From Mustelus asterias (Eukaryota), in assembly GCF_964213995.1 (NCBI RefSeq), contig NW_027590164.1:496001-560000 (forward strand): a stretch of DNA of 64,000 bases, read 5' to 3'. The translations under genes were made by a program, and so were the position numbers. The notes beneath the pieces were generated by a model that was not told where the DNA came from, ran no database searches, and saw only the letters and a list, made by a program, of their open reading frames with translations. Within the stretch, counting starts at the first letter, position 1. Each line of letters begins with the position of its first letter. This document shows positions 1,257-60,034 of the stretch, in pieces.

Positions 1257-1292
1257 CTTTTTTAAAAAATTACTAGCTTTATCTTCCCACAG

Positions 1293-30749: not shown

Positions 30750-30975
30750 CGTCATCGCGGAAGAGACTGATTCCTATTGGCTGATTCAGGCAGGGCTCCA
30801 TTGTGATGTCACAATGCGGAAGTTGTCCAATGAGCTTCAGAGTGAAACTTCCTCCTCTGAGCAACATCTGGGAGGAAATCAATGTTTCCCCCTTTCCATT
30901 TCTTTTCTCATTCTGGGGGAAATTGGGGACTTGCAGCAACTGAAGGGAAAGGAAGTGAATTCGGTCTGTACATTC
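30750..30975 (+). promoter_or_regulatory. Promoter / first-exon-like segment at the edge of the ZNF block
   Basis: ATTGG ~30776-30780, palindrome CATTGTGA-TG-TCACAATG 30799-30816 (CRE-like), ETS GCGGAAGT and CCAAT ~30827. Confidence 0.45.
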
Positions 30976-33900
30976 CACACATTTTTACTCCAGTAATGTA
31001 GACATTTATCTGTCTGGCAGCCTGCATGGAAATTTTTAATTTTTGGTCCAGCTTCACGCATAGAGCCAGGAGCCATTCTTTCGGTTTTTGTTAACATGTT
31101 TTTTTTAATGTTTAACAAAGAAGTAAAGATCAGAAAGTGAAATAAATTATTTTAAAATATTTTTTTCAACTTTGTCATGATAACTTATTGCACTAAAATA
31201 TTTGTTTGCATGTAACAAAGCTAATGTCAGCGTCTGGAATGAATTTCAGCATTTGGATTTTGTAACGTATTTTAAGCAGTTTTTAATCCTATTTTAAGAC
31301 TTGAAATTCTGTGGAGTTTCGAAGAATGGAAAACGATCTCAGTGAAACCTATACAATGCTGAATGGGTTAATACGATGGACGCATTGAGACTGTTTCTGC
31401 TGGTCGGAGGAATGTAAAACACGTTGCACGGTCTCAGGATGAGGGCTGAGTTGATAAATTACGACACTCAAAATAATTGTGAATTTTTGGAATTCTGTCG
31501 TCTAGAGGATTCTAGATTCTCTCCCATTGGACACATTTCAGTCTAGGATGGACAGAATCGTGGTCCGTCCGAGAATTACGATTGTGGACTGAAAAAGGAA
31601 ACTGCAACCCAAGGCCTGCCACTAATTAAAGTTTCGAGATCAATCATTATGTTTAATAGTATATTTGAAACCTAGATGTTATCAAATATCAAGTATCAAA
31701 ACATTAAATTTTAATGTTGGCAACATAGTATGACAGCAGAGCAGGGAGCATTTATCAGATATTTATTGTTGTTACTCAGGTGCTCTGAACTATGACAATG
31801 AATACTGATGGGGGGAGAATACAAATGCACAGCCGAACGCGCTCGCCGAGACTGAGACGACTGACCAATCACATCGCATCCTAAATCAGGGTGTCAGCGA
31901 GTTCTCTGATATTCCGATCGCATTTTCATTTTGACAAAACCTGATCTATAACGACAGCGATTATATTTCAAAGCAAGTCGCGTGGCTATATAGCCCCCTT
32001 ACAGTTGTTGTGGTTTACTTGTTACCCCCGAGTGCTAAGATGGGAAAAGCGCCGTTGAATACAGCAAATTTGGGAAAAAAACTGTTTCAACAAGGAAACA
32101 ACCACCTGCATATTTGTAATAGTTTGAATGTTCGATCAAATTCACTTCCTTTTATATTTCTGTTGATTTAAAACGTCTGTTTATGTATCTATTTGTGTGG
32201 GGAAAATAGCAGCAGGACTCGCAAAGTTGGGACGATATGTTCTTGTCGCCAAAGGACGCAGAACAGAACTATGTCGGAATATAAGTAGAATCAGGAGCAG
32301 ATTAGTTAACCCTCGCGGGTCACAACCCTCCAGCATTTCGGTATCTTACTACTTCGCTAAACACGTTTACTACAGAAGAGCTCCTGTGGGTGGGATTCAT
32401 TCCTTCAGCTTCCATTTCAATGTTATGCTCATTGACGTTACTCATAACTGGTTTGAAAAATAATCGTATTGGACACGGAACTTTAAATCTGTTTTTCGCT
32501 TCACATTTGCTGCTCGACCTGCTGAGAAGAAAAGACAAAGACAAGTACAGCACGGGAACAGGCTCTTCGGCCCTCCAAGCCTATGCTGATCGTGATGTTC
32601 TAACTATACAAAAATAACTTTTGCCCTTACTCGGTCCTTCTCCCTCTATTCCCTTCCTATCCATGTACCAATCCTGATGCCTTTAAATGTTGCTAATGTG
32701 CCTGCTTCCACCAGCTTCTCCAGCAGCGCGTTCAGGGCACCCTCTACTCCCAGCAGAAGCAAAAACCATGCACAACGCCCTTCCAGCACTTTCTGTTTTC
32801 ATTATCACATGAATTACTGGCTTTGTCAGATACATGAACACAAGAAATAGGAGCAGGAGTAGGCCATGCAGCCCAAGGATCCAGCTCTGTTTGCAGTCAC
32901 TTTGCAGCGTTTGCATAGTTGAAATTACGATGTGTAACTTGCGATCATTAACTGAAGTTAAAAAACAATCTCCAACGAGAATTGAACGCGTTAATTACGG
33001 GAACACTGTTCTGCCCACTGAAGTATGGAGCCAATCATTGGCTACAAGGCTGCAACAAGTGTATAATAATCAGTGGACAGAGTTCATTTTCAGCTACATG
33101 ATATTTGAGGGAGGCGGATATGTCTGAGCTGGAGTGCAGGGAGTTAAAAGATGTGGTTTAAAAGGAAGATAATTTGATAGGTGCCAGTTACTTGGAATGA
33201 TCAGTGACTGCCGTGTGTTTGCCCTGTGATTCTTCTTCCGAGATTATTCTTGTGACATTTCTGAATTTTCCAGCTCTGATACAAATTCATCCAGCTGGAA
33301 GAGTAACCCTGTTTCTCCCTCATAGACGCTGTGAGGCGTTGTTTCATTTAATGAATAATTAAATAAAAATATATTCACTCCGCGCTGGGAATCAAAACCC
33401 AACGAATCCAACTGAGACACCCGCCCAGGGAAGCTGATATTAGAGATTTGCAACTAGTCGAAAAGCTACGCTTTTATCATTACTTAATTTCAGGTGATTG
33501 TCTAATACACAAGCTCTAAAATAATGTTAGGAGTCCAATGGTGAAGGAGAAAATCGGGTTAAAAATGACAGCCCATGAGTTGAAGCTTCAACATGACTGA
33601 AGAATTTCCCTAGTTCCATTCTGTGGACTTCACCTGCCTTCTATATTTGTCGAATTGTGGGTTTTTTAACGTCTCATTGAGTGTCGCAAATCTTCTGAAG
33701 ATGTTAAATGGATCGGGAATGAAGTGCCTTTGTGAACTCCTCATGTAGATTTGTTGTTTTAAATTGCGGCGAATCAAACTTTTATTGTAACAGTGCAGTC
33801 GTTAATTTCCTAAAGCCGCTGCTCTATATTAACGTGGTCGTGTACAGCCATAAGGTAAATAAAATGTGTGGATCTTAATGCAGCAATGGGTAAACAAAAT

Positions 33901-35586
33901 TGGCCATTAGAGTTGTCCCAAGGGAACAATTCGCAACGCTCATTACAACTTTATCGACAGTGTAAACCTTGGTCTACACGGGGAAGCCTAGCATTGGGCA
34001 AGTACAGCAGCATCTCTCCTCTGCCCAAAGACGAATTGAAAATTATTGCTAGCGCACCTTCTTTGTCCTCGCTGGCCTCACTCATCAGTCCTGGAAATAT
34101 TCTTTTCTAATTTTAATGCTGTCAAAACACTTAGAACTACCTATCTGTTTTGTGAAGGTCTTCAATTGAATCACAGTCCAATCTGATTTTGAAACCAACA
34201 TCGTCTGTCACAGAAATGGACACCAACACAAAGCTTTCATGTGGAACCCTTCCTATGTCATCCAGCTCTACATTAAAAAAATACCATGATTGTCCTTAGT
34301 GAGCCCGACTCTTTCCGAGTTATATTTATAATATCAATCTGCATGCAAAGGAAATTACCATTTTCCTTTCTTTGATCTGTCAGGTTCTTTTCGGAGTCCT
34401 TTCCTGGTCTCATATTTTCCCCTTTGAAGGCCCCTCTTGCCCATTCTATATAATTCGAGGGATTCTGCTGTTTTAAGCCCTCGTTGGCTGCCATTAGCTA
34501 CCCTTTCCCTCTGTGTACAATGTTGTATATCCCTCGATATCCAATGTTCAGTGGATTTGTTGGTCCCATGCTTTTTCTTTATTGGAGAATGTTGACCCTG
34601 TCATCGCCCTATTTCCTTCTTCAATGCGTCCAACTGCTCTGTGACAATTTAATGTAAAAGTGTCTGCTCCCAGTCAAATCTGGCCAGATCATACCTGATC
34701 TTATTAAAATCAGTCTTCATAGAAATATGATCGCTGGGCCATCCTTGTCATTTTCCATAACAATCTTGTATCTAAATATGCTACGATTGTTATCTGTAAA
34801 ATGCTCCCCCACTGCTAATGCAACCACTTGTTCGGCTCTATTAACTAAAATTCTGAAGTTCTCCCCATTCTCTGATTTATTTCGTTTTCTTTCGAAGCTC
34901 CTACTTTTTTTCTTTTTTCTGTATTACAATTCTAACTCCCTGTGTTCGCCATGTCTCGTTCACTTCTCATTTCATCATTTTGCATCTTAATGGACATAAT
35001 TCGTGAATGAATGTAATTTTTGTAAGTGGCTTGTTATATATGCAAATACTTGGCAAAGTATCGTTTTAACTTTGGCCTTTCTTTCCCATCCAGATGTCAA
35101 TTTCCCGCCTCATATCTTAATTGCTTCTGTTCTTTATATTTAAAATCAACATTTCAGACTGAACATAATCGTTTTCAAAGTTAATGAACAATCTATATAT
35201 GGATGGACGCTGTTCCCTTGCTAACTAGACACTATTAATGCTTGATACCTGGTATAAAATAATTTGTTCTTTGGTTGGTTCCGCAACATAATGCAGTAGA
35301 ACTGCATCTGGTACCTACTGCAGAAATTCCTCACACACAGCATTGGTGCTCATCACATTTACACAATGTATATATAGATTGATTATATGGAATTGCTGAA
35401 TACATTAAAGGTGGGGATAAGACCGATTATTTCCCAAATTACACCTGTATTGGCCTGTACAAAGACAACGACAGCGACATAGGCGTGAGATAAATAGGCT
35501 TGGCTGTTTTTGTGAACCCGGGATCAAACCATTCCTGGAGGCAACGGCAGGAAAGCAAATTTCGTGGAGCTGCAAATATTGGTTGA

Positions 35587-35625
35587 GGTTTTTGTACGGG
35601 GTTTTAGCGATAATCTCACGCTGTG
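35587..35625 (-). promoter_or_regulatory. Recombination signal sequence, 23-bp spacer
   Basis: CACAGCG + 23 nt + ACAAAAACC (consensus nonamer). Confidence 0.92.
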
Positions 35626-36125
35626 TCTCAATGCACAGTAATAGACCGCCCTGTCCTCCATACAGAGGGCCCTTATATTGAGGTAACCATTCTGTTTAGA
35701 CTTGTCAACAGCCGCAAGATATTGTCCTGAAACCTCATCTGTCGTCAGTGCTAAGACTTTGGTAATAATCCATCTCGAGGGTTGTGACGGTTTCTGCTGA
35801 TACCATTGCATGTAGATCATATTGGGGTCTGTATGCATACAATCTAACTGCACCGAACGCTCTTCTGACGCAGCTATTGTCACTGGTGACTGAGTTACTG
35901 GATCGGTGCACAACCCACCTGTAAAGTTAGAGGAATGAAATATCAAATGTTTGAACAGAATTGATCTTAATTTGTTTTCAAATGCGTGGACTCTACCCAT
36001 CATATCGATATTTCTGACAGTTAGTGATGCCAAATATTATTGCAATTTATAATCTGCTAATCTGGCAGGATGAACATCATCCACCACTTACCATCTAACA
36101 GCACCGACAGTGTGATCAGAAGCAT
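35626..36125 (-). CDS. TCR alpha/delta-type V gene segment, apparently intact (leader 36092-36125, V exon 35626-35918)
   Basis: Leader MLLITLSVLLD-G|gtaagt and acceptor ctttacag. Spliced frame of 109 codons with Cys(VQLDC), WYQQKP and YYCALR, followed directly by a 23-RSS. Confidence 0.88.
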
Positions 36126-36312
36126 TTCTGATTGAAACTCTCTCAGTGAATGGGAAGGAGTGAGTCAGAGACTGAGACGGAGAGAGGGAACCCGGGCTCT
36201 GTTCAACTGGATTGTTCCACCCACACGCTGCATTGTGACTTTATTCAGGGAACCATCCCTATTGGCTTTGAAGATGCCACCGCGTGACTTCCTCGCGCTG
36301 ATGCTTGAATAT

Positions 36313-36327
36313 GGCGCCCTCTGGTGC
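36313..36327 (-). promoter_or_regulatory. CTCF-like motif upstream of the V leader
   Basis: GCACCAGAGGGCGCC, ending 188 bp upstream of ATG 36125. Confidence 0.6.
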
Positions 36328-37465
36328 GAGATTCTGTTTAATCCGGTTTAGAATGCGGCCATTAAGTGCATTCAGAGTGTATTGAAATGCACATAAAGAC
36401 GCGAATGTTTCCCATTGGAGCTGCTTGGACACAGTTTTTGTTACTCTCGATGTCAGAAAGTTCAGCTGTTTCTGTATATCGCGACCAGAAAGTTAACCGT
36501 CTCCATCTACGTCCTGCACATGACCAAATAGGAACAATGGTATACTCGGAGAAAGGGCGGCTGTTATGTATCAGAATGTGCAAAGGGATAAGGAACGTTT
36601 ATACAAATCTGTAAGGAAACTTCTTGAAACAAAGATGGTACCATGGAGACTCAATTGATGTGTTGAAATATTGCCCTCTCCTCTCGGCGGTAATTACTTT
36701 CATGAGCAAAAGATTCAATGCCAAAATCATTCCAATTGTATAGACAAGTGAAATATGAATTTTATTTATTACATTGCGATACGTTGGCATCTGGAATAGA
36801 GCGCCTAAAATGCCGAAGGAATAGGATTCAATAGCAATTTTCAAAAGAGGAATATCACAGCGTGGAAAATGCGCGGTGTGAAAGACAATAGACAGCATTT
36901 TGAAACAGGTATGGTAATGCGAATGCGCATTTCGTACCCTAACTTCCGATGACTCTTGGCTGTTCATGCCACTCCCAGACTATTTCTTAATCACTTGAAC
37001 ACTGAGCAAGTGCAGGATGGTGACTGAAGTCTGAAGGTTCAACCGAGGCTAATTCCGCTCCGTCATTTGCGTCGGCAGCTGATAGCAGCGGCACACTTTT
37101 ATCAGTTTTTAGCCTGCAGTGCCTCGGCAGCAGCTTCCGTTTGCTCTGCACGCTCTGAACCGATGCTGCTGTTGGAGTCACGACTGCCTCTGGCCCATTC
37201 CTATCATTAGTCAGGTCAGCAGGGCAGGAATAGGGAACCTGTCTGTCTGCTCTGAAAGAACATTTCTGCTTCCAAGAGCGATGTACAGCAGAATTGATGA
37301 TCTAGCGTACAAGAAAAAAATGCCGTGCCTGTTTTCATCATTAAAACACGAACAGTGTATGAAACGAGGAAGGAACTAAACAGTCAATATAGTTCAAATG
37401 AGCCAAAGATGAGATTTCAGTATTCAGGTGCAGAAAATGAGTAACACGCTGCTGATGATGTTAAA

Positions 37466-38190: not shown

Positions 38191-38687
38191 AGTCAAATGA
38201 CCCAGATATAATGCACAGCGACGCTGATTTCAGAATAGAAAGAAATATAAATATGTGGAATTGTTGCGGAAGACTGTTTCAACACAAAGATCGATTCCGT
38301 GACTCCTCTTTTGTTTGGTTTAATCTCAAAGACAGAGTATTGGAGGGAATGGGAAAGGTGAAGCAGGGGGGAGAGGGACGATTGTCCTGAGCAGAGACTT
38401 GAGTAACTCTAGGTCTTTCCACCACAGGAGGGAAAGTCCCGAATTCAATCAAATTTGTTACGCAAGACTTACCCTTCACAAATCCATGTTGACTATCCTG
38501 GATTAAGCTGCATCTTTCCAAATGGTCATGAATTCTATCCCTCAGGACCTTTTCCATGAACTTACCGACCACTGAAGTAAGACTAACCGGCCTATAATTA
38601 CCAGGGTCACTCCTATTTCCTTTCTTGAACAGAGGAACAACATTCGCCACTCTCCAGTAATCTGACACTATCTCCGTGGACAGTGAG

Positions 38688-42700: not shown

Positions 42701-43901
42701 CCCACAGATCATCTGCAATCACATCCTTTGCTTCCCAAATAATCCGAGGTTATATCCCATCTGGCCCAGGGGACTTACTGAATCTCAGGTTTTTCAAAAT
42801 TGCTAATACATCTTCCCTCAGAACATCCACCTCCTCCAGCCTATCAGCCTGTATCACACTCTCATCCTCAAAAACATGGCCCCTCTCCTTCGTGAAAACT
42901 GAAGAAAAGGATTCATTCATTGCCTCTCCTATCTCTTCTGACTCCCTGCACAAGTTCCCATTACGATCCCTGACCGCCCTAACCTCACCCTGGTCATTCT
43001 TTTCTTCCTCACATAAGAGTAAAAAGCCTTGGGGTTTTCCTTGATCCGACCCGCCAAGGACTTCTCATGCCCCCTCCTAGCTCTCCTAAGCCCTTTTTTT
43101 AGTTCATTTCTTGCTACCTTGTAACCCTCAAGCGACCCAACTGAACCTTGTTTTATCATCCTTACATATGCTTCCTTTTTCCTCTTGTTGGACTTGTTGG
43201 ACTTTAACCTAGTGTTGTGAGACAACTTACTGCGCCCACCCCAGTCCAACGCCGGCATCTTCACATCATCGATAAACATTTTGCCAGCAAATTAAAATTT
43301 TAAAAAGGTATAAGATATGGAAGCAGATAGATGATTAGGAATAAGTGGATAATTGATTAAGTGAGACAGGACATAAGTAATGGGCCGAACCTCCTCTCCG
43401 TGTGCTGTAAAACACTATGATTCTAAGATAATCAATTGTTCTGTTCAGTTAGAAATACAAAAGAGCACAGAACTTATGAAAGAATTTACTCTGTTACACA
43501 CAGGAAGCAAAGAGATTCAGAAGCAGTGACAGTCCAAGTGGTGTATGGTTTGACAAAAGCCAATTGCTCAGTGGCACCGTGAATAACGTCAGATAACGAC
43601 ATCCCATCATAGTCCATTCGGTGACACTGCCCATCAGCCTCACATTCAGCTCTCGCCTCTCCTTCCCCTTCCCATCATTCACAGTCCCGACCTTGGCTGC
43701 AAGTCCCAGTCTCGAAATCAGACCCGGTATGATCCTGTTGTACACCGTCATCATCATGAAGACAAACCCCCGCAAAGACTTGTTTCCAGTTGGAGCTCAG
43801 ATACAGCTGATATTGTGTGACTTTATGAATTTACTCAGACGCATTATTTTAAAAGTCTCTTAATACCGTGTGGTTTGTGAGTGATTTTGTTTTGTTCACA
43901 G

Positions 43902-44222
43902 CCGTTCAGTGTGAGGATCGGAGCTCCCGCCCTGAGCAGGTGGTGCCTTGGGAAGTGAAACGGGTTCAACTGACCTGCCTGCCCCCCTTTGCTACAGGCG
44001 ATACCATGGTCTGGTACAGACAAGCACTGACAGGGGCTCTGACATTTATCGCCTCCATTTACGAGGAGAATATGACCTCAGGGTGTTACACACTATGCTT
44101 TGACCGAGTAAAGAATTCAAATCCAATCTCTATAGATGACACCACGGTCCAGGACTCAGGGATTTATCTCTGTGCGAAGCAGACGCAGTGAGACAAAGGA
44201 TGGGGCCGGTTGTACAATATCT
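43902..44222 (+). pseudogene. TCR V segment (open V exon 43902-44183) with a defective 23-RSS; no clear leader donor
   Basis: Acceptor ttcacag; VQLTC..WYRQ..DSGIYLCAKQ. Heptamer CGCAGTG 44184-44190 (critical CAC lost), 23-nt spacer, nonamer ACAATATCT 44214-44222. Leader-like MILLYTVII at ~43729. Confidence 0.78.
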
Positions 44223-44677: not shown

Positions 44678-44845
44678 TTGTTCCTGATCACTCGGAGACA
44701 TTTCAGATTTCGATGCATCGGGTTAAACAAGGACAGACCATCTCTCTTCATCACAATGTTACTGTCGCTGCAAATGACTTTGTGTTCTGGTACCGGCAAT
44801 TCACCGATCAAGCTCCCGAGTATACTTTGGTAATGATGCAGGCGC
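44678..44845 (+). pseudogene. Truncated TCR V relic (5' half only)
   Basis: Acceptor tttcacag; VKQGQTISL..FVFWYRQFTDQAPEY. First Cys absent; 3' half and RSS missing. Confidence 0.6.
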
Positions 44846-45106
44846 GTCAGAAAACTGAGATAAATAATTTTTTATCAATACTCAACAACAAATGAAGCAA
44901 AACCAGAATGACAAAGGCAGCAGATGTTGTAGCAATAACATCGAAGTAATAAAACACATGACAAACTGCAACAATAAAAACCCGTAATACGATGCAGCAA
45001 CATAAAATCGCTGTTTCACAGATGACGTCCCAAGACCTCATCTTTCGCTAAAACCTGCAGAACCGTCAGTTTCCCCAATCACAGGCGACAGCTGGAGTTA
45101 CAGGAA

Positions 45107-47722: not shown

Positions 47723-49133
47723 TGTTTGCCTAATTCTCTGTTATGTTGAGCGAGGCTCTGACAGTTTTTGTACAGGTTCAGCCCAGCTCTGTGTCTCTGT
47801 GGGACTCAGTGCGCAGTGATAAACCCCGGAGTCTGGCAGCTCTGTTTCAGACACTTTCAACGGGACGGTGCGTGTTGTATCATTGAGCTCCGCTGAAAAA
47901 CGGTCCCCTGGGGACCTCCCTGTGCTCCCGGTGAATTTAACTGTTTGCAGCAGATACTCCATGGGCCCGTTGGGATACAGACGGTACCAGAATAGGAAAG
48001 GGTTTGTTGCTTGTAGCTGTATAATTACAGAACCACTGAACATCATCTCCTTCAGTGACGGTGACTGCAGGTTTCTGCGAAACAGAATCTCCTCGACAAT
48101 GCCCTGTTGCAGCACAAATAAATATTAAACTAAACAATGCGACTTCACTCTGTTTCCCCCAGAATCTTCCCGTCATCCTGAACAATAAACTTAAAGAGAA
48201 ATCAGACAGCAGAACAAGAACATATTTTTCACAGTTCAGTGGTTGGAACGGGAAGGTATTTGTGGTGGTTAAATCAAACTTCTACCGTAAACATTCTGTA
48301 CTTTCTAACGAGATCAGTTCCTCCCCTTCAGTCCCTGTAACTGGAACGGGAAATTGCCCACTGTCTGTTTGTAAGTCTGGTTATTTTTAAAATCATTTAC
48401 TGGTACCAGGGGAGTTTGAATCTCAGCCTAACTCATCCAATCTCATTCCCTGTGGAAAATGTGCCGACTCTCAACAAACAGTTTTCAGTATTGAGACCAC
48501 CGAGATCCAAATCACTATTCGAGGTTGGGATCAATCCGATCACCCAACCCCAGTCCCTTGTACTGAGCGAACAGCCCGTCAGAATATAGTGTATGGTAAT
48601 GGTGTACAACACAAGAATTGAGCAACTTGTGAACTGACCGGGAGTAATCTCAGCGCCAAATGTCACATGTCTCAACAGTGACGATCGTTAACCTCAGCGA
48701 GGGAATACAGTTCAGACGGGCCTGTGTAGTGGCCTTAATTCTCTGTACATGTCGATTAGATGCGACTCTTTTTTTGTACGGAACCATTGATGATGAACTT
48801 GCACCGGTTTTTGTATGAGGTCCGTGGGAGCCTTATTCACTGTGGGTTTCAGTGCACAGTAATACACGGCGCTGTCTGTCATCTTCAAACCTTTCATGGA
48901 CAACTAAAAAGTGCTTTGTTTCAGGTTCAGATTCCCGCTGAAATGCTCAAAGCCGTGAGCCGTCTCGTTAGACCCATAACATCGGCTCTGAGCAGATACT
49001 GAGGAGCGCGGTGTGGATACTGGCGATACCAGAACAGGCCATAGCCTGTAGCTGAACTCGATAGAGAGTAATTGCAGGATATTGCTGAATCTTCACCCTC
49101 TGCTGCTTCAACTCCTGGTTCTGACTGGGACAC
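47723..49133 (-). repeat. Inverted duplication, arm 1 (mirror of 58529-59939)
   Basis: Mirror ORFs have a constant coordinate sum of 107662 (e.g. 47741+59921, 48712+58950); only a handful of substitutions. Confidence 0.96.
47763..48223 (-). pseudogene. TCR alpha-type V pseudogene (V exon 47802-48103, 23-RSS 47763-47801)
   Basis: GDSVSQKP..WFCNY [frameshift] FWYRLYP..DSGVYHCALSP. RSS CACAGAG-23-ACAAAAACT. Leader MFLFCCLISL with the donor apparently mutated (ttaagt). Confidence 0.85.
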
Positions 49134-49324
49134 TGAGTCTCCGCTACTCATCTCTGAAGATAAACAGCAGACACACAGTGGATTAGGATTACGAGGAAGA
49201 CAATAATCAGACAGAGATGGGAAAAGGAAATTGCGCAGGGATCGCGATATATTTTAGGAAAGTTCCAGTTTCACTGACCTGCGATCAGGGCAATAATCAG
49301 AGTTAGAAACATTTTCACCCCCAT
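48806..49324 (-). pseudogene. TCR alpha-type V pseudogene (leader 49279-49324, V exon 48845-49153, consensus 23-RSS 48806-48844)
   Basis: Leader MGVKMFLTLIIALIA-G|gtcagt; GDSVSQSEP..ISCNY..LFWYRQYP [frameshift, TAG] DSAVYYCALKP; CACAGTG-23-ACAAAAACC. Confidence 0.88.
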
Positions 49325-49510
49325 GGTTCCAGTCTGAACTCCAGGAACATAAATACGGATTTCTGGCTGTAACCGACCTGGAATGTGAGAATTTGAAAGA
49401 GCAAGGAAAATGCAATACGATTGGCTGAGTTTTATTTCCCCTCCCATTTTTATGTCGGTAAATAGACACTTTCTGAAGATGGAGGCCGTGATGTTTTGTA
49501 GTGATCTCAG

Positions 49511-49525
49511 AACGCCCTCCCGTGG
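49511..49525 (-). promoter_or_regulatory. CTCF-like motif upstream of the V leader
   Basis: CCACGGGAGGGCGTT, ending 187 bp upstream of ATG 49324. Confidence 0.5.
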
Positions 49526-51233
49526 ACAGTACAACCGCATTTGAAACAGACACAGAACCAAGAGTCCAGATATATACACTCCGTGAAACATAGAGACACA
49601 GAAATATCCAGTATAGCTACAACTCTGGACAAGAGGAAACATCCACTCCACATCCACCCTGTTATTGGACTTCCGGTTTGAAAGGTTTCAATCAAGTTGC
49701 TTCTTTCTCTTCTAAACTTCAGTGGATGCAAACGCAGCATCACCATCCTTTCCTCGTAAAATAACCCGCTCATCCTGGTAATAGTTTAGCAAACCTTCTA
49801 CAAACATTTTCTAAAGCATTACCATCTTTCTTTAGATAAGGAGACAAGTATTGTACACAATGTTCCAAATATGGTCTCACAAATGCCCTGTACAACGGAA
49901 ACATACCCGACCTATTTTCGCAATATATTCCCTCATAATAAGTGATAACATTCTCTGATATTTTCTAATTAATTGCTGTACTTGTACATTAGCCCCTTGT
50001 GATTCCTGGACTAGGACAGCCAAATTCATTTATACCTCAAAATTTCGTGATCGCTCGCCATTTAAATATTAACCTTATTTCATATTCATCATGCCAAAAT
50101 TGACATTTTCACATTTTCCCACATTATACTCAATTTGCTGGAGATTTGCCAATTCACTTGATCTACTTATGTTCTTTTATATTCTCCCTCCGCCCTCTTC
50201 ACAACTTATTTTCCTATCTATCTTTGTGTCGTCAGCAAAGTTAGCATCCATATCTGCTCTGTAACATATCACTGTTGAATCCAACAATCAATCAAGTTCT
50301 CTTGGCTGTCTGCTCTGTAACATTTCATGGTGGGGTCGAAACTGCTCCTCCTGCAGTGAAAACACAAAAACGGTGAGGGAGCACCCTCTTGTGGTGATGT
50401 GAAGTAAATAGCCTCTGCCTGGGAGATCACTGAATCCTCAGATTACAGAAGGATCTTATTGCAGGATATTGCTGCTGCATTTTTCATGTTCATATAATAG
50501 TTATTATAATATACATAAATTCACATGGAACTATGCACGGAACTAATAACAACTTCAATTTGAATCCTTGTCATTTATTTTATTTTTAATAGCCCAGGTT
50601 TTTCTGTTAAACTATGCTCGTGTTACATAATTTGAAACCACAGCAATACTGATACAATTCGAACTCTTAATGAAGTTATCTCCACATCGAAAGGATGTAA
50701 ATTTGACTCGCATATATCTGATATATTGTTGGATTTCATTGCAACTGCTTCGATTTGAAACTTTCTCAATAGTTGTGGTTGTTATGTTTTGTCTAACATA
50801 TCAGCTGTCCGTTAATGGGATTTTGGGGAACTTATTGAAATGGGTGATTGGGAGAAATTGAATGTTCCACATTCTGCTATTTCCTGGAACACGGTTGAGG
50901 GAGAAAGCGGTCCTGAGACACAGAGACGGAGAGGCCAAAAGGTAGAGTGTGGCAGACAGACACTGAGCCGAACAGAGAGCCAGAGATACAGAAAAGGACA
51001 GACAGGAGACAGAGCAACAATCAGATGAAGTAATTGGGCTGCAGCTAACATTGATGGGTGGCCAATTCTTGAGAAAACTGAGGAACCAGCCAATCCTGTA
51101 ATTAGGCAACGCCTCTTAGTTTCCCAATAAATAAAGCCTGCCCATGATGTGAAATTACTTCTTCATGTCAGAGTGGAAGAGTTGAAATATTTTTAAAATT
51201 CTGCTATTTTTGTAGAATTCTGTAGCAGGAAGC

Positions 51234-51671
51234 ATGTTCTTCCAAATTTCTTTACTAATACTGTTGGTTTTGCTGCCCGGTGTTTAAATAGTCACTGTCT
51301 GTTCTCAGCGTTCACTATCAGATATTTAATTGATTCTGTAATTTGTTGCAGGAACCAATGGCAAATATGGTTTCCTCTGAATTAACGGTTCATGAAGGAC
51401 AGGCCATAAAACGGGACTGCAGTTATTCGGGTGCTGATGTTCGAACTCTGTTCTGGTACCTCCAGTGTTCTGGGAAAACTCCGAAATATTTATTGACGAT
51501 ATATGGCACAGAAGCCACGTCTGAAGATTCTCCAGATAGATTTTCTGTTGCTTCCACAAAGAAAACAAAGCAGTTCCTTTAAGTTTCATTGGGGCGCTCT
51601 CTCTGTCAGCGCTGTGTATTTCTGTGCCATGGAGCCACATTGGTGCATAGAGCGAACCACGGACAAAAACC
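51234..51671 (+). pseudogene. TCR alpha-type V pseudogene (leader 51234-51279, V exon 51352-51635, RSS with a 20-nt spacer)
   Basis: Leader MFFQISLLILLVLLP-G|gt; TVHEGQ..DCSY..LFWYLQ..PKYLL..SAVYFCAMEP spread over frameshifts. CACATTG 51636-51642 + 20 nt + ACAAAAACC 51663-51671. Confidence 0.83.
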
Positions 51672-51696
51672 CAAGACTTAGAGTTCCAGGTAGTGG

Positions 51697-51711
51697 TCAG
51701 CAGAGGGCGCT
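51697..51711 (+). promoter_or_regulatory. CTCF-like motif
   Basis: TCAGCAGAGGGCGCT, a close match to the CTCF core consensus. Confidence 0.6.
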
Positions 51712-52001: not shown

Positions 52002-54791
52002 CAGGGGTCTCCAAACTTTTCAGTACGAGGGCCACATCGTATATTTTACACATTTTCGGGGGCCAGAGAAAAGAATTAGTTTTATAAATGAATGAATAAA
52101 ATTTAAATGAATGAATAAGTTTTATTTGGATCATCTTTGTAATCAGCATGATATGATTCAGGACAAAAGAGAAATGTGACAATTACAAAGAAACAATGCC
52201 GTGTTTACATTGAGAAATGATATATAATGAGTAAAGATGTCAAACATTAGCAAATGCTCTGACAAAATAATCAATTACTTAACGGCAGATGAGAAAAGCA
52301 CGCTATTCATTTTAAAATTAATTTTATTTACTGAAATTTTACAAATGTTTACTTGAATGAGAATTTGCCCAATTATGTGTCACACAATAACAAATATAAA
52401 CACGCACGGAGAAAGAACTTCAGTAAAACAAAGCAAAGAAATTCAAAATAAACTTGAACCATTAATAAAGGTCGAACAAAAATAAGTTCAGTCTGCACCT
52501 TTCTACACAATTCTGGCAATTGGAGTTTTCAATCGTAACCAACAAATCATGAAGTTTTGCACAAGATTAATGGGAATGATGGAACTGCTTTTTTAATTTC
52601 ATAATATTGCTGAACTGAGGTTTCAAGCTTGAGGAGCCAATTATTAGAATGGACTTCAAATGCTCATCAGATAAATTTGCTCGATACTTGGACTTGACAT
52701 ACTTCATTTTTGAAAATGTTTGTTCACACAGGTAAACAAAACCTGATACAAATCCACAAGCAAATCGCTTCAAATTTGGAAACTGCTCAGACTGCAAAGA
52801 TTTATAAAATTGATCAGATTTCCTTCTTTATACTTGTCTTTCAGCATGTCATCTGATTGGAGATCAATAATTTCCATTTGAAACTGACTTGGGAGTGTTT
52901 CAACATTGCAGCCAAATGGATTTTGAAACAACTGTATTTCATCTGTGTTTCCATCAAGATCAGAAAATCGTTCCTGAAATTTTTTTTGCAAGTCCTTAAT
53001 GATTTCTGTTGCAAATGAAGAGGGAAATTCTGCTTCACTTTCTTCATGAAAATTTTCACAACATAGAAAATGAACCAAGTTATGAACTTTCAGCTGTCCT
53101 TGAAATAGCATCAGTTTTGCCCTGAATGCCTTGACATGCGCGAATAGATCACAAATCAAATTTGTTTCACCTTGCAACTTCAGATTCAATTGATTCATAT
53201 GGCCTGTCACGTCCGCAAAAAATGCCAATTTCCAAAGCCAGTCAGTGTTTGATAAAAGTGGTTCGGTCGATTCTTCTCTGTGAGAAAGGAATCAATTTCC
53301 TCTCTGAGCTGAAAGAACAGTGATATAACTTTTCCACAACTAAGCCATCGAACTGCTGTATAATAAGGCAAGTCACCGAACTCAGAATCAGTTTCTTTCA
53401 GAAAATCACGAAACTGGCGATGAATAAGCCCATGAGATTGAATGAAATTCACTGTTGAAACAGCAGGTTTCAGAACGCAAGACATATCCACTTATTTTCC
53501 ACACAATGCTTGTTGATGGATAATGCAATGCAGAAACATGGGCTTCGAGAATCCACCAACCTCACAAGCTTTTGTGATTTGTCCAACCAAACCTTTCTTC
53601 ACCCCAGGCCTGTTCTTTCCTCCATCAGTTGTCACCCATTGCAGTTTATTCCACTCCAGGTTATATTCTAACACAGTTTTTTGCAATGCTTTCAAGATGT
53701 CTTCTCCAGTTACTGTGCTGTGCAAGCTATGCACTGATGCTAATTCTTGTGCCACGTTAAGTGCACTGTCGACGCCACGGATGAATACTAGGAGTTGTGA
53801 TGTGCCAGACACCTCATTCGATTCATCAAGTGCGAGAGAATACAACTGAAAATTTCTTGCTTCGTCTGCAATTTGATGAAATATGTTGCTTCCTATATCC
53901 TCAATTCTACGAGCAACAGTATTTCGCGCAAGACTGATGATTTTGAACAGATTTGCTTTTTCTGGGCATAACTCTTCCATTTCTTCCATTATACACTCTT
54001 TGATGAGATCTCCATTGGTGAATGGCTTTCCTCTTTTAGCCAAGACATAAGCTAGTTTGTAAATGGCCCTGGTTAAAGCTTCATTTTCAGTTATCTTCTG
54101 CGTAATAAAAGCTTGTTGGGAAAGCAACCTGCGTTGCATTGATTCATTTTTTTTCCGAACGCTGTGTTCCTGTAAATTGGGAATAACTTGGTTCATGTTT
54201 GGTCTCATAGTGCCGACGTACATTGTACTCCTTCAAAACAGCAACAGTTTCGTTGCATACGACACACAAGGCTTTATCACCTGCTTGTACAAAGAAGTAT
54301 TTTACACCCCATTCTTCATTAAACAGGTGGCACTCACTGTCCACTTTTCTTTTCTTTTTTCCTTCCATAACTGAATTGCTCTGAATTACCGCCATCATTG
54401 TCATTGTTCTCGCTCATTTCAGACAGATGGAGCTTACGGATTGGATAAAGCAGCTGTCACTCAGTCAATGCAGAGCGGCAATTGGATAGCAGATGTCTCA
54501 ATTGCTGAATCGTTTAATGAACTGTCAGTCACAGGACGGCAGCTCTGATTGGACAATAGGCCGGCAAAGAGGGCAGGATTTTCCATGGGTCCATCAGACA
54601 CCGCGCGGAGCGGCAGCAAATGTCCGGCCTGTGGCTTCCGTTCCCGCGTCCGGATCCTGAGTCAGCGGCGGTGTTCCGGACGCGGGAATGTTTTCGGCAG
54701 CGGGAATCCCGTCCCGCCCCACTGGCTACGGGCCAGATGTAGCCCGCTGGGGGCCGGATTTGGTCCGCGGGCCTTTGTTTGGAGACCCCTG
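52002..54791 (-). mobile_element. hAT-superfamily (Charlie/GTF2IRD2-like) DNA transposon, 2790 bp, with a frameshifted transposase (~54368-52567)
   Basis: Perfect 15-bp TIRs CAGGGGTCTCCAAAC (52002-52016; 54777-54791). BED-like CVVC..RRHYETKH; YSLALDES; TTDGGKN; HCIIHQQALC; VRWLS; C-terminal CEQTFSKMK dimerisation motif. Confidence 0.93.
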
Positions 54792-56099
54792 TTTTAAACG
54801 AAATCAAATATCTTTGAAGGGAAGAGATTTAAGAATGATCAGTTAGTTCTGCTTGATCCCTCTTTATTCTGTGTGTGAAACATTCTGGTGCCTAAATCTC
54901 GTCCATCTCCTGGACGTCCAGCAGGTCGGCACTGATTCTCGATTTCCACATCTGCCTGAATGGATTTTCCTATTTCTTTATCATGAGGAGCAACTGTTAT
55001 AAAGGATGCTTCTGGGAAATGTGCGCTATTCCCTCTGGTTCAGTTACAGTGACACTTGTGTCTGTCTTTTTGCGCACACAATACTATTAGACATGTTTCA
55101 GATGGTGATTAACTATGTTAGTCTGCACCTTTCAATCCATCGAATTCTGTTGTACACTGAGCGAAATACTAATTTGTGCACGATTCTTTCCTGTCAAAAT
55201 ATTTTGCAATTCTTAATTTACAGAAAGCATTTGAGGTCGAGGTCAGAGCAAGGATAATATGGCTGTAACACTGAGATTCCGATAATGTTCTGCAACCAAC
55301 TGAAATATGAATTTCCCTCACGCTGTATGAAAAAGTTTAACGAATGCTTCAGCAGGTTTACGAACCAGGTATTTTTACCGTGTTATGCGAACGTGATAAC
55401 CACGACACGACAGAAACAAGTAACAACCTGGCTGCCCCCATGTTGCCTGAATACAATGTTCAACTCCAATGAGTTGCTGCAAGTTCCAAAGGTTAGATTC
55501 AGAGCCCATGTCACTTAATCCAAGGAGACATCCTTTTTTTTCAACCTGATTTCTCAATTTATGTTGAACTTCAAACGTAAAAAGCGTTCGTCCCGCTAAG
55601 GGAGCAATGAATGTTCCTCATTCATCAAAGCGTCATTGTCATCTTCCTTCGAATAATCGCAACCAATTGTACTCAGTATTTGTTTCCTTATTCAATATTT
55701 AACATCGATACATTATTTAACATGTCCTCATTATGAATTGAATATCTCTGAAATTGAATATCACTGAATTGCAAACATAACTGACCAAGAAAAGGAGTCG
55801 AATCACCGGGTAATACAGATCCCATGGCGTTTGTTTGAGATTGACCATCGTCAGCTTTTAAACAAAGTCAACTATAATTAAATGGAAGAGATTGAAGAAT
55901 TATTTGTTAGGTATACTTGAGCCTTTTTTATTATAAATGTGAAACATTCAGGCGCATAAATTCCGGCCATCTAAAGGAAAGTCCAGTTGATCCGCACTGA
56001 GTCTCTGTTTCCTCGTCTGTTTGAGTGTTCTTTCCGATTTCTATGTTCCGAAACACGATTTTTTAAAAAAGATTATTCTGGAAAATGTGCGCCATTTCA

Positions 56100-57720
56100 A
56101 AGAACAAAGAACAAAGAAAATTACAGAACAGGAACCGGCCCTTCTGCCCTCCAAGCTGTACCGACAATGCTGCCCGACTGAACTAAAACCCCCTACCCTT
56201 CGGGGACCAAATCCCTCTATTCCCTTCCTATTCATGTATTTGTCAAGACGCTCCTTAAAAGTCGCTACCGTATCGGCTTCCACTACTTCCCCGGCAACGA
56301 GTTCCAGGCACCCACTACTCCCTGTGTAAAAGATCTGCCTCGTACATCTCCTTTAAACCTTGCCCCTCGCACCTTAAACCTGTGTCCCCTAGTAATTGAC
56401 TCTTCCACCCTGGGAAAAAGCTTCTGACTATCCACTCTGTCCATGCCTCTGGCTTTGTCAAAGGCAGATCATGCCTAACGAGCCTGATTGAATTAGTTGA
56501 GGATGTGACTGAACACATTGATGAAGGAAGAGCAGTAGATGTAGTATATATGGACTTCAGCAAGGCATTTGATATGGGGCCCCATGCAAGGTTTATTGAG
56601 AAAGTGAGGGGGCATGGGATCCAAGGGGACATTGCTTTGTGGATCCAGAACTGGCTTGCCCACAGAAGGCAAAGAGTGGTTATAGATGGGTCATATTCTG
56701 CATGGAGGTCGGTCACCAGTGGAGTGCCCCAGGGATCTGTTCTGGGACCCTTACTCTTTGTGATTTTTATAAATGACCTGGATGAGGAAGTGGCGGCAAG
56801 GGTTGGTAAGTTTGCTGATGACACAAAGGTTGGAGGTGTTGTGGATAGTGTGGAGGGATGGCAGAAGTTGAAACGAGGCATTGATAGGATGCAAGACTGG
56901 GCGGACAAGTGGCAGATGGACTTCAACCCAGATAAGTGTGAGGTGGTTCATTTTCGCAGGTCAAATAGGATGGCGGAATATAATATTAGTGGGAGGACTC
57001 TTGGCAGAGTGGTAGATCAGAAGGATCTTGGGGTCTGAGTTCATAGGACGCTCAAAGCAGCTGTGCAGGTTGAGGCTGTGGTTAAGAAGGTGTATGGTGT
57101 ACTGGCCTTCATCAATCGACAAATTGAGTTTAGGAGTCGTGAGATAATGTTGCAGCTATATAAGACCCTGGTCAGACCACACTTGGAGTTCTGTACTCAG
57201 TTCTGGTCGCCTCATTACAGGAAAGATGTGGAAGCCATAGAAAGGGTGCAGAGGAGATTTACAAGGATGTTGCCTGGGATGGGGAGCATGCCTTATGAGG
57301 ATAGGTTGAGTGAGCTCGGCCTTTTCTCCTTGAAGAGTCGAAGGATGAGGGGTGACCTGATCGAGGTGTATAAGATGCTGAGAGGTATTGATCGAGTGGA
57401 TAGTCAGAGGCTTTTTCCCAGGGCTGAAATGGTTGCTACAGGAGGACACTGGTTTAAGGTGCTGGGGAGTAGGTACAGAGGACATGTCAGGGGTAAGTTT
57501 TTCACTCAGAGGGTGGTGGGTGCGTGGAATGGGCTGCCAGCAACGATGGTGGAGGCGGATTCGATATGGTCTTTTAAGAGGCTTTTACATAAGTACATGG
57601 AACTTAGTAAGATAGAGGGTTATAGGTAAGCCTAGTCGTCGCTAAGGGAGGGACATGTTCGGCACAATTTTGTGGGCAGAAGGGCCTGTATTGTGCTGTA
57701 GTTTCTCTATGTTTCTATGT
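56100..57720. mobile_element. CR1 3' end (-, ~56100-56449) abutting a 5'-truncated CR1/HER1 copy (+, ~56450-57720)
   Basis: ORFs 56505-57038 and 57063-57629 (RT interrupted by a stop); CR1 tails at both outer ends. Confidence 0.88.
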
Positions 57721-57856
57721 TAGCAACGCAAACAAATAGGTGTCAGAAACCTGCAGAATAATTCTGGATTTATAACGAGGGACGTTAGAATTAATGTCAC
57801 TGTCTGGGCATATATCTATATGGTTATATATCCTTATTCGTGTTGGTCTTTCCACG

Positions 57857-58087
57857 TGACCGTGTGTGTATCTGTTCTCCGCATGTCTGCTGGGTTTCCT
57901 CGAGTGCTGTGGTTTCCTCCAACAGTCCAAAGATGTGCGGATTAGGTGGATTGGCCATGCTAAATTGATCCCTAGTGTCAGGGAGATTATGTGTGCGGTT
58001 ACGGGACTAGGGCCTCGGTGGAATTGTGGTCGGTACAGACTCGCTGGGCCGAATGGCCTCCTTCTGTACTGTAGGGGTTCTATGATT
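57857..58087 (+). mobile_element. HE1-type SINE, 5'-truncated and diverged
   Basis: Core GGGTTTCCTC..GGTTTCCTCC..AGTCCAAAGATGTGCGG and tail TTCTATGATT. Confidence 0.75.
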
Positions 58088-58140
58088 AGATGATCTCTAT
58101 ATGTGTCAGTATTTGCAGGTTGCCGTGTGTGTACCTGTTT

Positions 58141-58155
58141 CCACGGGAGGGCGCT
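58141..58155 (+). promoter_or_regulatory. CTCF-like motif upstream of the V leader
   Basis: CCACGGGAGGGCGCT, ending 188 bp upstream of ATG 58343. Confidence 0.55.
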
Positions 58156-58342
58156 CTCTGATCACTTATGAAAGATCACGATCCCCTTCAAAAGGAAGCG
58201 TCTGTTTGGATATGTAAAAAGGGGCGGAGAGTTGGAGTCACCTTCGATCTCATAACATCCCCCTGACTGTTTCAACTTCTCCAATTGCAGATCTGATGCA
58301 GACAGTGATCAGTCTCTCTGTTCTGGTGTTCAAACTCGAACC

Positions 58343-58856
58343 ATGGGGGTGAAACTCTGTCTCACTCTGGTTATTGTCCTGATTACAGGTCTGTCATTTT
58401 GAACTTCTACGTGAAATCCGCCAGTCCCCATATTCATTCCCCATTTCCATCTCGAGGCGATTATTCCGTTGTTGTTACTCCTTCTAACCCGCTGTTGTCT
58501 ATTTTCAGAGATGAGTAACGGAGACTCGGTGTCCCAGTCAGAACCAGGAGTTGAAGCAGCAGAGGGTGAAGATTCAGCAATATCCTGCAATTACTCTCTA
58601 TCGAGTTCAGCTACAGGCTATGGCCTGTTCTGGTATCGCCAGTATCCACACCGCGCTCCTCAGTATCTGCTCAGAGCCGATGTTATGGGTCTAACGAGAC
58701 GGCTCACGGCTTTGAGCATTTCAGCGGGAATCTCAACCTGAAACAAAGCACTTTTTAGTTGTCCATGAAAGGTTTGAAGATGACTGACAGCGCCGTGTAT
58801 TACTGTGCACTGAAACCCACAGTGAATAAGGCTCCCACGGACCTCATACAAAAACC
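58343..58856 (+). pseudogene. TCR alpha-type V pseudogene (leader 58343-58388, V exon 58509-58817, consensus 23-RSS 58818-58856)
   Basis: Leader MGVKLCLTLVIVLIT-G|gt. V exon almost identical to 48845-49153, including the frameshift and TAG. CACAGTG-23-ACAAAAACC. Confidence 0.88.
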
Positions 58857-59939
58857 GGTGCAAGTTCATCATCAATGGTTCCGTACAAAAAAAGAGTCGC
58901 ATCTAATCGACATGTACAGAGAATTAAGGCCACTACACAGGCCCGTCTGAACTGTATTCCCTCGCTGAGGTTAACGATCGTCACTGTTGAGACATGTGAC
59001 ATTTGGCGCTGAGATTACTCCCGGTCAGTTCACAAGTTGCTCAATTCTTGTGTTGTACACCATTACCATACACTATATTCTGACGGGCTGTTCGCTCAGT
59101 ACAAGGGACTGGGGTTGGGTGATCGGATTGATCCCAACCTCGAATAGTGATTTGGATCTCGGTGGTCTCAATACTGAAAACTGTTTGTTGAGAGTCGGCA
59201 CATTTTCCACAGGGAATGAGATTGGATGAGTTAGGCTGAGATTCAAACTCCCCTGGTACCAGTAAATGATTTTAAAAATAACCAGACTTACAAACAGACA
59301 GTGGGCAATTTCCCGTTCCAGTTACAGGGACTGAAGGGGAGGAACTGATCTCGTTAGAAAGTACAGAATGTTTACGGTAGAAGTTTGATTTAACCACCAC
59401 AAATACCTTCCCGTTCCAACCACTGAACTGTGAAAAATATGTTCTTGTTCTGCTGTCTGATTTCTCTTTAAGTTTATTGTTCAGGATGACGGGAAGATTC
59501 TGGGGGAAACAGAGTGAAGTCGCATTGTTTAGTTTAATATTTATTTGTGCTGCAACAGGGCATTGTCGAGGAGATTCTGTTTCGCAGAAACCTGCAGTCA
59601 CCGTCACTGAAGGAGATGATGTTCAGTGGTTCTGTAATTATACAGCTACAAGCAACAAACCCTTTCCTATTCTGGTACCGTCTGTATCCCAACGGGCCCA
59701 TGGAGTATCTGCTGCAAACAGTTAAATTCACCGGGAGCACAGGGAGGTCCCCAGGGGACCGTTTTTCAGCGGAGCTCAATGATACAACACGCACCGTCCC
59801 GTTGAAAGTGTCTGAAACAGAGCTGCCAGACTCCGTGGTTTATCACTGCGCACTGAGTCCCACAGAGACACAGAGCTGGGCTGAACCTGTACAAAAACTG
59901 TCAGAGCCTCGCTCAACATAACAGAGAATTAGGCAAACA
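58529..59939 (+). repeat. Inverted duplication, arm 2 (mirror of 47723-49133)
   Basis: Reverse complement of arm 1 with a few substitutions. Confidence 0.96.
59439..59899 (+). pseudogene. TCR alpha-type V pseudogene (V exon 59559-59860, 23-RSS 59861-59899)
   Basis: Copy of 47763-48223; frameshift before FWYRLYP; CACAGAG-23-ACAAAAACT. Confidence 0.85.
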
Positions 59940-60034
59940 ATTCTGTTTGTGACTCTCACAGGCTGCCTGGCCTGATGAATATCTCCAAGATTTATTTTCT
60001 TTATCCCAGATACAGTCTCTACAGAGTTTTGAAA

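Follow-up and report, generated by a model that had tools for sequence, protein, structure and literature searches.

Organisation of the locus

The window analysed here, a stretch of 64,000 nucleotides from Mustelus asterias, lies on an unplaced contig of 1.04 Mb (C132). At 35.6–59.9 kb it carries eight TCR alpha/delta V segments or relics between C2H2-ZNF arrays, one of which is intact and seven of which are broken. The order and strand of the V exons and relics are 35.6k (–), 43.9k (+), 44.7k (+), 47.8k (–), 48.8k (–), 51.4k (+), 58.5k (+) and 59.6k (+), so that the count, order and strands all match a preliminary description, which had claimed at least eight V segments in mixed orientation. 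ZNF-family DNA stops at about 31,036 and restarts at 59,938. The 264 kb around the window are free of N gaps and hold 34 C2H2 finger clusters, none of them within the island, with arrays at either flank, as had been claimed for ZNF-cluster DNA. The ZNF genes have tandem C2H2 fingers joined by TGERP linkers (46 clusters read), and Pfam zf-C2H2 was found in 7 and 10 stretches. The features are given below in window coordinates.

614–11776, + strand: ZNF-array block, directly duplicated from 60031 on (to window coordinate 70666); no V inside
3328–4323, + strand: frameshifted C2H2-ZNF exon within the direct duplication
20630–21196, + strand: C2H2-ZNF exon with 7 fingers in a single open frame
28006–28824, – strand: C2H2-ZNF exon with 10 fingers in a single open frame; nearest ZNF preceding the island
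31036–59938, no strand: V island proper, its limits being the ends of ZNF-family homology
35587–36125, – strand: intact TRAV/TRDV segment; leader exon 36125–36092, 173-nt GT..AG intron, V exon 35918–35626, 23-RSS 35625–35587
43729–44222, + strand: V pseudogene; V exon open from 43902, heptamer CGCAGTG (44184), poor nonamer, leader donor not evident
44719–44860, + strand: truncated V relic, 5' half alone, without RSS; V-set E = 0.051
47723–49526, no strand: left arm of an inverted duplication (partner 58140–59939); 99.5–100% over the first 1.4 kb, ~67% after
47763–48221, – strand: V pseudogene; leader stop, frameshift near CDR1, 23-RSS 47801–47763, leader start approximate
48806–49325, – strand: V pseudogene; frameshift and stop, perfect 23-RSS 48844–48806, leader start approximate
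51235–51671, + strand: V pseudogene; leader, stop and frameshift, RSS with 20-nt spacer (51636), leader start approximate
58140–59939, no strand: right arm of the inverted duplication, ending at the junction with ZNF-array DNA
58343–58856, + strand: V pseudogene; inverted copy of the 48.8k V exon with a diverged leader in front, perfect 23-RSS 58818–58856, leader start approximate
59440–59899, + strand: V pseudogene; inverted copy of the 47.8k segment, 23-RSS 59861–59899, leader start approximate
60031–64000, + strand: right copy of the ZNF block, 99.35% identical to 614–4588 and running past the window
62740–63735, + strand: frameshifted C2H2-ZNF exon, copy of 3328–4323

The intact 35.6k segment has a split leader with a phase-1 intron and a leader exon of 34 nt. 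Its spliced frame is open over 109 aa with the C-terminus YYCALR, its RSS has 1 mismatch and its V-set domain scores E = 1e-11; at least 101 matches to its family occur across the genome. In several of the other window V's the leader is damaged or weak. The region at 31–37 kb had no match among the RNA data listed, a result that is mute either way on expression.

Identity of the V segments

Pfam V-set was the top family for all seven V pieces submitted, the 44.7k relic included and the 51.4k relic left out. The V-set exons end right after the second Cys, with no J/G strand, and then run into a 23-RSS. A 23-RSS with two or fewer mismatches lies directly behind five of the eight V exons; simulated windows (n = 40) had a mean of 0.025 and a maximum of 1. 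Two further RSSs, those at 44184 and 51636, are defective. These data bear out the claim that most of the V's have leaders and/or 23-type RSSs.

We also placed the V's in a tree of 97 columns and 63 rows, the backbone of which is weak. Seven of the eight window V's grouped with V's of C71, C546 or C123, six with starred support and the 51.4k relic, on a long branch with C546:35426 and C123:877646, at 94/83. The 44.7k relic was unplaced within the tree, and no window V grouped with the outgroups (TRB, TRG or kappa) taken from the same genome. The window V's are spread over several families; the 43.9k V is the sister of C71:7342912 (100/99), and the 35.6k family lies near the outgroup side without support. 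In blastp the best partner of all eight was a V of C71, C546 or C123, whereas the best scores against the outgroups were 30–44 bits for six window V's and absent for two. Amino acid identity is 81% between the 47.8k V and an open V at C546:47371, upstream of TRAJ, and 87% between the 48.8k V and an open V at C123:879022. Named database matches of the V profile were TCR alpha V. When one V and then the V profile were searched against the PDB, the top matches were multi-domain antibody constructs, which left the segments unclassified.

Duplications in and around the window

Two dead V's recur almost unchanged, in inverted orientation, as the last two V's (58.5k and 59.6k). The direct ZNF duplication extends to about 11 kb at 96–97% identity, and its portion inside the window accounts for the right flank having been called a ~99% copy of the window's left end. 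A V and ZNF composite duplicated as a unit in the window was rejected, as the ZNF duplication carries no V. Recent copying of the island from another place was rejected too, the closest copies of the 47.7–49.6 kb V pair outside C132 being 80–93% identical among the 40 best of 455 candidates scored. On both grounds, the proposal that the V block was carried along by ZNF duplications is without support here. At C71:6.507–6.578 Mb, V and ZNF are jointly duplicated at 98.5–99.5% identity.

Search for recombination partners

No 12-RSS with two or fewer mismatches was found in the 264 kb around the window, and tblastn for TRAC, TRDC and J gave no match in the same 264 kb. Genome-wide searches for TRAC, D and TRDC list no place on C132. 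The preliminary description, which had recognised no D, J, C or 12-RSS, is thus upheld for 264 kb and, as regards D, J and C, for C132. It had also proposed to map the nearest TRAJ, TRDD, TRAC or TRDC on the scaffold; none was found on C132, and TRAJ and TRAC do occur on scaffold C71. Since the searches of the unplaced C132 yielded no D, J or C, the nearest partner lies at least ~0.48 Mb from the island.

The same arrangement elsewhere in the genome

Scaffold C71 (20 Mb) carries VNAR, 36 TRAJ and TRAC, and its V islands alternate with the ZNF family of the window. Relics are likewise interspersed in these islands, which are megabases away from TRAJ. At C71:6.44–6.64 Mb, 13 ZNF genes are followed by a 59-kb V island and 4 more ZNF genes, with an inverted duplication spanning one ZNF and V's. 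A block of three genes at 43.3–48.6 kb of the window is collinear with C71:7.342–7.348 and 16.488–16.493 Mb at 74–84% identity, and the 44.7k relic has its collinear counterparts at C71:7.3438 and 16.4894 Mb. On C546, open V's with RSSs are separated from about 100 J's by four ZNF genes (68–94 kb).

A ZNF marker had 1347 matches in the genome (control, 0); among the first 100 listed, 73 were on C71 and 27 on C8, C12, C16 and C23. With a narrower marker (n = 189), C23 had 4 matches and C71 had 14 (up to 18.0 Mb), the remaining matches listed being on unplaced contigs. We estimate 4,300–17,000 ZNF copies in the genome, most of them on contigs shared with TCR pieces. Across contigs C87–C122, TCR alpha/delta pieces occur on 15 of the 17 with the ZNF marker versus 2 of the 19 without it (Fisher p = 5e-6), a tally that covers the matches listed (150 best of 750 and 40 best of 455 candidates scored) and ignores the sizes of the contigs. 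The arrangement of V's within ZNF arrays is the rule in this genome. The earlier proposal of a TCR alpha/delta locus interdigitated with ZNF genes accordingly holds as the general build of the genome, as seen on C71 and C546, and cis-linkage of C132 stays putative. Arrays of the same ZNF family are also present on C23, C12 and C16, where the unplaced C132 could belong; this and the death of seven of the eight segments count against its belonging to such a complex.

TCR-delta cassettes and TRAC loci

As counted in the assembly, there are 19 TCR-delta-type constant exons. Eighteen were compared and form 10 groups at 98.5%, with identities down to 88–90%; for 12 of the 18, another C region is at least 98.5% identical, and 14 of the 18 copies have a TM exon within 10 kb. 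C71 bears three delta cassettes, two of them 89–98% identical block by block. Two C71 cassettes read as full V-D-J-C units, with a NAR-TCR V, a supporting V, IgH-like V's, D's, five J's, C and TM exons; the 12/23-flanked D and J, the C1 exon and the TCR-type TM exon stand in that order. Searched against the PDB, the delta-type exon gave generic C1 matches and no TRDC-named match. The C exons are probably delta, judging from the D segments, the TM exon and the cassette V's, which we take to be NAR-TCR-type.

There are two TRAC loci in the genome, one of which is on C71 alongside the three delta C, with ZNF arrays between. On the 5' side of the two J clusters, the stretches screened (C546:90–140 kb, with a 200-N gap at 129.55 kb; C71:18.36–18.37 Mb) showed no delta C frame, and the genome-wide list has none there. 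It is likely that at least ten delta-chain cassettes alternate with V islands and thousands of ZNF genes in an expanded receptor locus. The nearest 12-RSS partners are likely to be the many dispersed TCR-delta cassettes rather than one D-J-C end.

Explanation of the island and its alternatives

We read the window as a mostly decayed TCR alpha/delta V island in a C2H2-ZNF array, likely an unplaced piece of a shark antigen-receptor complex in which V islands, delta cassettes and ZNF arrays alternate over megabases (probability about 0.75). The seven broken segments would be birth-and-death debris as part of this explanation. Segmental and inverted duplications may have mixed the V and ZNF blocks. 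Following the 12/23 rule, RAG would join the intact 35.6 kb V either to the TRDD of a dispersed delta cassette or to a TRAJ of the same chromosome. Orientation would set whether joining occurs by deletion or inversion, with the intervening ZNF genes lost or flipped as bystanders. Because V islands, delta cassettes and ZNF genes alternate, T cells undergoing rearrangement would delete or flip ZNF genes.

It is unlikely that the island is a true orphon, carried together with ZNF DNA into a different ZNF array (such as one on C23) and unable to take part in productive rearrangement. The absence of any D, J or C found on 1.04 Mb, the seven dead segments, the sharp junctions with ZNF DNA and the arrays on C23, C12 and C16 would all suit such a history. 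However, among the matches listed there is no V-family or exact 23-RSS match on C23, C12 or C16, the C71 islands, too, contain relics and are megabases away from TRAJ, and one segment retains leader, frame and RSS. An unplaced piece of the antigen-receptor complex is likelier because V/ZNF alternation and the three-gene block occur on C71 and TCR pieces occur on 15 of the 17 ZNF-marked contigs.

An assembly artefact, with V and ZNF contigs mis-joined and the many delta cassettes being uncollapsed haplotypes, seems very improbable. Read contigs at both junctions (31.0 and 59.94 kb) break at repeats and none among those listed bridges either junction, the right junction adjoins a 99.5–100% inverted copy, unplaced contigs carry the bulk of the ZNF/V DNA, and two-thirds of the delta C regions compared (12/18) are closely paired. 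Against this, unique island DNA is present in read contigs at a depth of ~17–26 and the 264 kb have no N gap. The alternation repeats on C71, C546 and many contigs, one scaffold alone holds three delta cassettes that include the 89–98% pair, and ten delta C groups are left after merging at 98.5%. We give almost no credence to the idea that the window exons encode V domains of non-rearranging IgSF genes (UrIg-like or NITR-like) and are not TCR segments. The 35.6k family is divergent and has a relative in catshark labelled 'kappa light chain-like', but C546 has a relative at 68% identity upstream of TRAJ, and the exons halt just past the second Cys. Non-rearranging VJ genes of the UrIg type, with a single V+J exon and no RSS, were rejected on the RSS behind the exon and the missing J strand. 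Clustering with non-rearranging IgSF genes, named earlier as a refuting condition, is contradicted by this anatomy.

Comparison with known systems

Taken alone, the island is unremarkable debris from a scattered field of shark V's, and it is the ZNF setting that is without description in the literature searched; among the matches listed, full-text searches showed neither shark TCR-ZNF interdigitation nor multiple shark TRDC. Embedding in one of the genome's largest gene arrays may be the reason why the shark TCR alpha/delta locus resists assembly. The setting predicts Mb-scale V(D)J joins over ZNF arrays and clonal loss of ZNF genes.

A wider reading, for which we judge the odds about even, is that TCR delta, once a single translocon, has become ten or more Ig-like V-D-J-C miniclusters and TCR alpha two loci shorn of their upstream delta C, with ZNF-array duplication driving the expansion of the TCR. 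All of these would be dispersed, together with V islands, through tens of Mb of ZNF array, and T-cell clones would therefore each carry their own somatic ZNF deletions or inversions. Cluster-type TCR delta would make the textbook contrast of shark Ig miniclusters with TCR translocons less clear, and would alter which gene (TRDC) is removed by alpha rearrangement.

Ig/TCR orphons are V segments, mainly pseudogenes, with no J or C nearby and outside the parent locus. The island resembles them in being mostly pseudogenes with no D, J or C found nearby; unlike them, it probably does not sit outside its parent locus, against which the genome-wide pattern argues for C132, though it is unplaced. Marsupial TCR-mu clusters are a comparison case for TRA/TRD uncoupling and TRA duplication. 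Newts show TRA/TRD separation with TRA duplication (PMC12698447), and here TRA is likewise uncoupled from TRD at two TRA loci; the newt loci are on separate chromosomes, whereas one TRAC and three delta C share C71 with ZNF arrays between.

In the elasmobranch AgRC (Flajnik et al. 2025, PMC12227049), TCR alpha/delta is a translocon, and neither 'zinc' nor 'ZNF' occurs in the main text of that paper. Its Table S1 has TCR alpha/delta V's of the great white shark scattered over 8.2–17.1 Mb in both orientations, and, for catshark and stingray, a single delta C immediately ahead of a single alpha C. In nurse shark, alpha and delta chains draw on the same V's (PMC5931798). As in the AgRC, V exons here are scattered over Mb in both orientations, and one scaffold has them intermingled with NAR-TCR, IgH-like V and IgNAR; in contrast to Table S1 of PMC12227049, we find 19 delta-type C exons, two TRAC and intervening ZNF arrays. 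The repeated V-D-J-C cassettes of shark delta resemble the Ig miniclusters of cartilaginous fish, which the introduction of PMC12227049 describes for IgH/IgL and not for TCR delta; here there are several V's and J's per cassette, and V islands outside the cassettes. In human IGL, ZNF280A, ZNF280B, PRAME and GGTLC2 lie between V genes (PMC9282919), so that non-immune genes, two of them ZNF, are deleted from within a V array on distal V rearrangement, as is predicted here. Human IGL has a handful of such passengers in one translocon (PMC9282919), whereas the shark array has thousands of ZNF copies by our estimate.

V segments of the window

Six-frame and profile scans found eight V exons or relics in the window, and their positions and strands match the mixed-orientation segments (at least eight) of the preliminary description:

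35.6 kb, minus strand, intact V segment
43.9 kb, plus strand, broken V segment
44.7 kb, plus strand, broken V segment (relic)
47.8 kb, minus strand, broken V segment
48.8 kb, minus strand, broken V segment
51.4 kb, plus strand, broken V segment
58.5 kb, plus strand, broken V segment
59.6 kb, plus strand, broken V segment

A 23-RSS with two or fewer mismatches lies at five of the eight (chance mean 0.025, 40 simulated windows). The 35.6-kb segment has a leader exon of 34 nt, a GT..AG intron of 173 nt, a frame open to the YYCALR end and an RSS with one mismatch. Among the other seven, the defects are frameshifts, stop codons, a dead heptamer, an RSS spacer of 20 nt and truncation. The pair at 58.5 and 59.6 kb is an inverted duplicate of the pair at 48.8 and 47.8 kb (99.5–100% identity over 1.4 kb); since the defects are common to both copies, the duplication came after loss of function. 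The near-identical tract (47723–49150 versus 58510–59939) ends at a V exon 5' end, and the 58.5-kb segment retains a diverged leader, resembling conversion or template switching between paralogs.

No D, J, C or 12-RSS had been recognised in the island. Over 264 kb around the window, too, no 12-RSS, J, TRAC or TRDC was seen. Searching the whole genome for TRAC, the D region and delta C, with every candidate scored (57, 21 and 120 respectively), gave nothing on C132, the 1.04-Mb unplaced contig holding the window (C132:496001–560000 of assembly G000).

In a 63-row V tree with a weak backbone, seven of the eight segments group with V segments of C71 (the 20-Mb TRAJ/TRAC scaffold) or of contigs C546 or C123, with starred support for six; the 44.7-kb relic has no resolved place. 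None of the eight groups there with TRB, TRG or kappa V segments of the same genome, outgroups that we label as such from locus anatomy. The named matches in a V profile database search were TCR alpha V. For the family of the 35.6-kb segment, scoring 150 of 750 candidates gave at least 101 matches in the genome, spread over C71 and dozens of unplaced contigs; further relatives occur in two catsharks. P0001, a catshark gene model called 'immunoglobulin kappa light chain-like', apparently comprises two V exons of this family read through the RSS, and its name appears to be a mis-annotation. Two stretches of C71, 7.342–7.348 and 16.488–16.493 Mb, are collinear with the block at 43.3–48.6 kb and repeat its gene order and orientation.

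ZNF surroundings and junctions

As previously described, ZNF-cluster DNA flanks the island on both sides: ZNF-family homology stops at ~31,036 and restarts at 59,938. The 264 kb, a stretch without N, hold 34 C2H2 clusters (~1 per 8 kb), with V segments confined to the window's island. Two of three additional 10-kb samples of C132 contained ZNF and none of the three contained V. The proposed joint duplication of V and ZNF DNA has one case, an inverted duplication at C71:6.507–6.578 Mb (L087–L094) whose ~30-kb arms (98.5–99.5%) cover one ZNF gene and V segments together, but the window's own direct duplication (614–11776/60031–70666) is ZNF DNA only.

At the right junction, which leads into the tail of the duplicated ZNF block, 103 bases (59938–60040) are identical to L011:7339–7441, a stretch at window coordinate ~71.3 kb, and 95% identical to 13778–13871. 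A GC-rich minisatellite (29834–30410; period ~52, 10.6 copies) lies 5' of the 28-kb ZNF exon.

V islands and ZNF arrays at the probable parent locus

On C71, the order at 6.44–6.64 Mb is 13 ZNF, a 59-kb mixed-orientation V island and 4 ZNF; 11 ZNF clusters occupy the 160 kb immediately 5' of the J segments, and at 12.4–12.6 Mb V segments are present and ZNF absent. The parts of C546 that were read (190 + 10 of 249 kb) hold V segments (32–63 kb), four ZNF genes, ~100 or more J-like segments and TRAC, in that order. Both TRAJ clusters start with D/J relics, and the two TRAC exons share 74% amino acid identity:

C71:18419395 (L052), TRAC exon, 36 J
C546:240150, TRAC exon, ~100 or more J

The intron following the C71 TRAC Ig exon contains an ~11-kb short-period minisatellite (18.420–18.431 Mb, L052–L054). 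A tandem array of near-identical minus-strand V segments at C71:19.36–19.38 Mb (L059–L060; ~2.45-kb spacing) sits 3' of TRAC and points towards the J segments, so that these V segments would rearrange by inversion.

A ZNF marker found in 8 of 46 ZNF genes read had 1347 genome matches (control, 0), which scale by that rate to 4,300–17,000 ZNF copies, any uncollapsed haplotypes included. Among the matches listed for C87–C122, TCR alpha/delta pieces (V, exact 23-RSS or delta C) occurred on 15 of 17 contigs with a narrower marker versus 2 of 19 without (p=5e-6), contigs being counted regardless of length.

TCR-delta-type cassettes

A delta-type C exon, labelled TCR delta from its context, is present in 19 copies in the assembly, all stop-free; no reference sequence naming it as delta was found:

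C71:7.085–7.142 Mb, delta-type C exon
C71:11.04 Mb, delta-type C exon
C71:12.223–12.274 Mb, delta-type C exon
16 unplaced contigs (L147–L183), delta-type C exons

The C regions share 88–99.7% identity over 10 kb (18 of 19 compared) and form 10 groups after merging at 98.5%. Both cassettes that were read contain a NAR-TCR-type V together with D's and J, a supporting V whose 23-RSS is stacked, and several IgH-like V's, as well as one or two D, five J, and exons for C1 and a TCR-type TM. Behind the supporting V the 23-RSS is repeated two to four times with a 61-bp period (C71:12229725–12229885, L132), and likewise repeated on C87, C90, C106, C122, C123, C154, C157, C160 and C173. Paralogs of a D-like piece that lies 5' of the J segments on C546 occur at 12 further places, and the two cassettes described above are at two of these. 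No delta-type C exon was found 5' of the TRAJ clusters on C71 and C546, only the D/J relics.

Probable linkage of the island and comparison with known loci

The V island is real, and it is ordinary within the Mustelus asterias genome. Segment anatomy, kinship, V/ZNF alternation and one joint duplication form the observed basis, on which we consider it probable (roughly 0.75) that the window is part of a linked TCR alpha/delta locus. Against this, C132 is unplaced, seven V segments are dead, and arrays of the same ZNF family also lie on C23, C12 and C16. The island junctions are also not bridged by read contigs. A true orphon seems unlikely. An assembly artefact is very improbable; V/ZNF alternation is seen on C71 and C546 too. 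Least probable of all is that the V exons are non-rearranging genes; five of them carry a 23-RSS.

V(D)J joining follows the 12/23 rule. Provided that C132 shares a chromosome with them, a delta-cassette TRDD or a TRAJ could by that rule be joined by the intact 35.6-kb V, and the joining, by deletion or inversion, would remove or flip intervening ZNF genes. Joins between V's and J's that both lie on the plus strand of C546 would remove the four ZNF genes there by deletion. Nurse shark alpha and delta chains use the same V's (PMC5931798).

In sharks, TCR alpha/delta V's are scattered in mixed orientation over ~9 Mb (PMC12227049); the V field here has the same scatter and mixed orientation, and zinc fingers are unmentioned in the main text of that paper. 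In catshark and stingray one delta C directly precedes one alpha C (PMC12227049 Table S1), whereas the Mustelus asterias assembly has 19 delta-type C, none found 5' of either TRAJ cluster. A full-text literature search, with key nurse-shark papers outside its coverage, gave no report of shark TCR-ZNF interdigitation or multiple shark TRDC. In human IGL, the deletion of ZNF passengers during V(D)J joining is already known (PMC9282919), and newts are reported to have TRA/TRD separation and two TRA loci (PMC12698447). Within the literature covered, ZNF interdigitation and many delta-type C would be new relative to the known shark locus.
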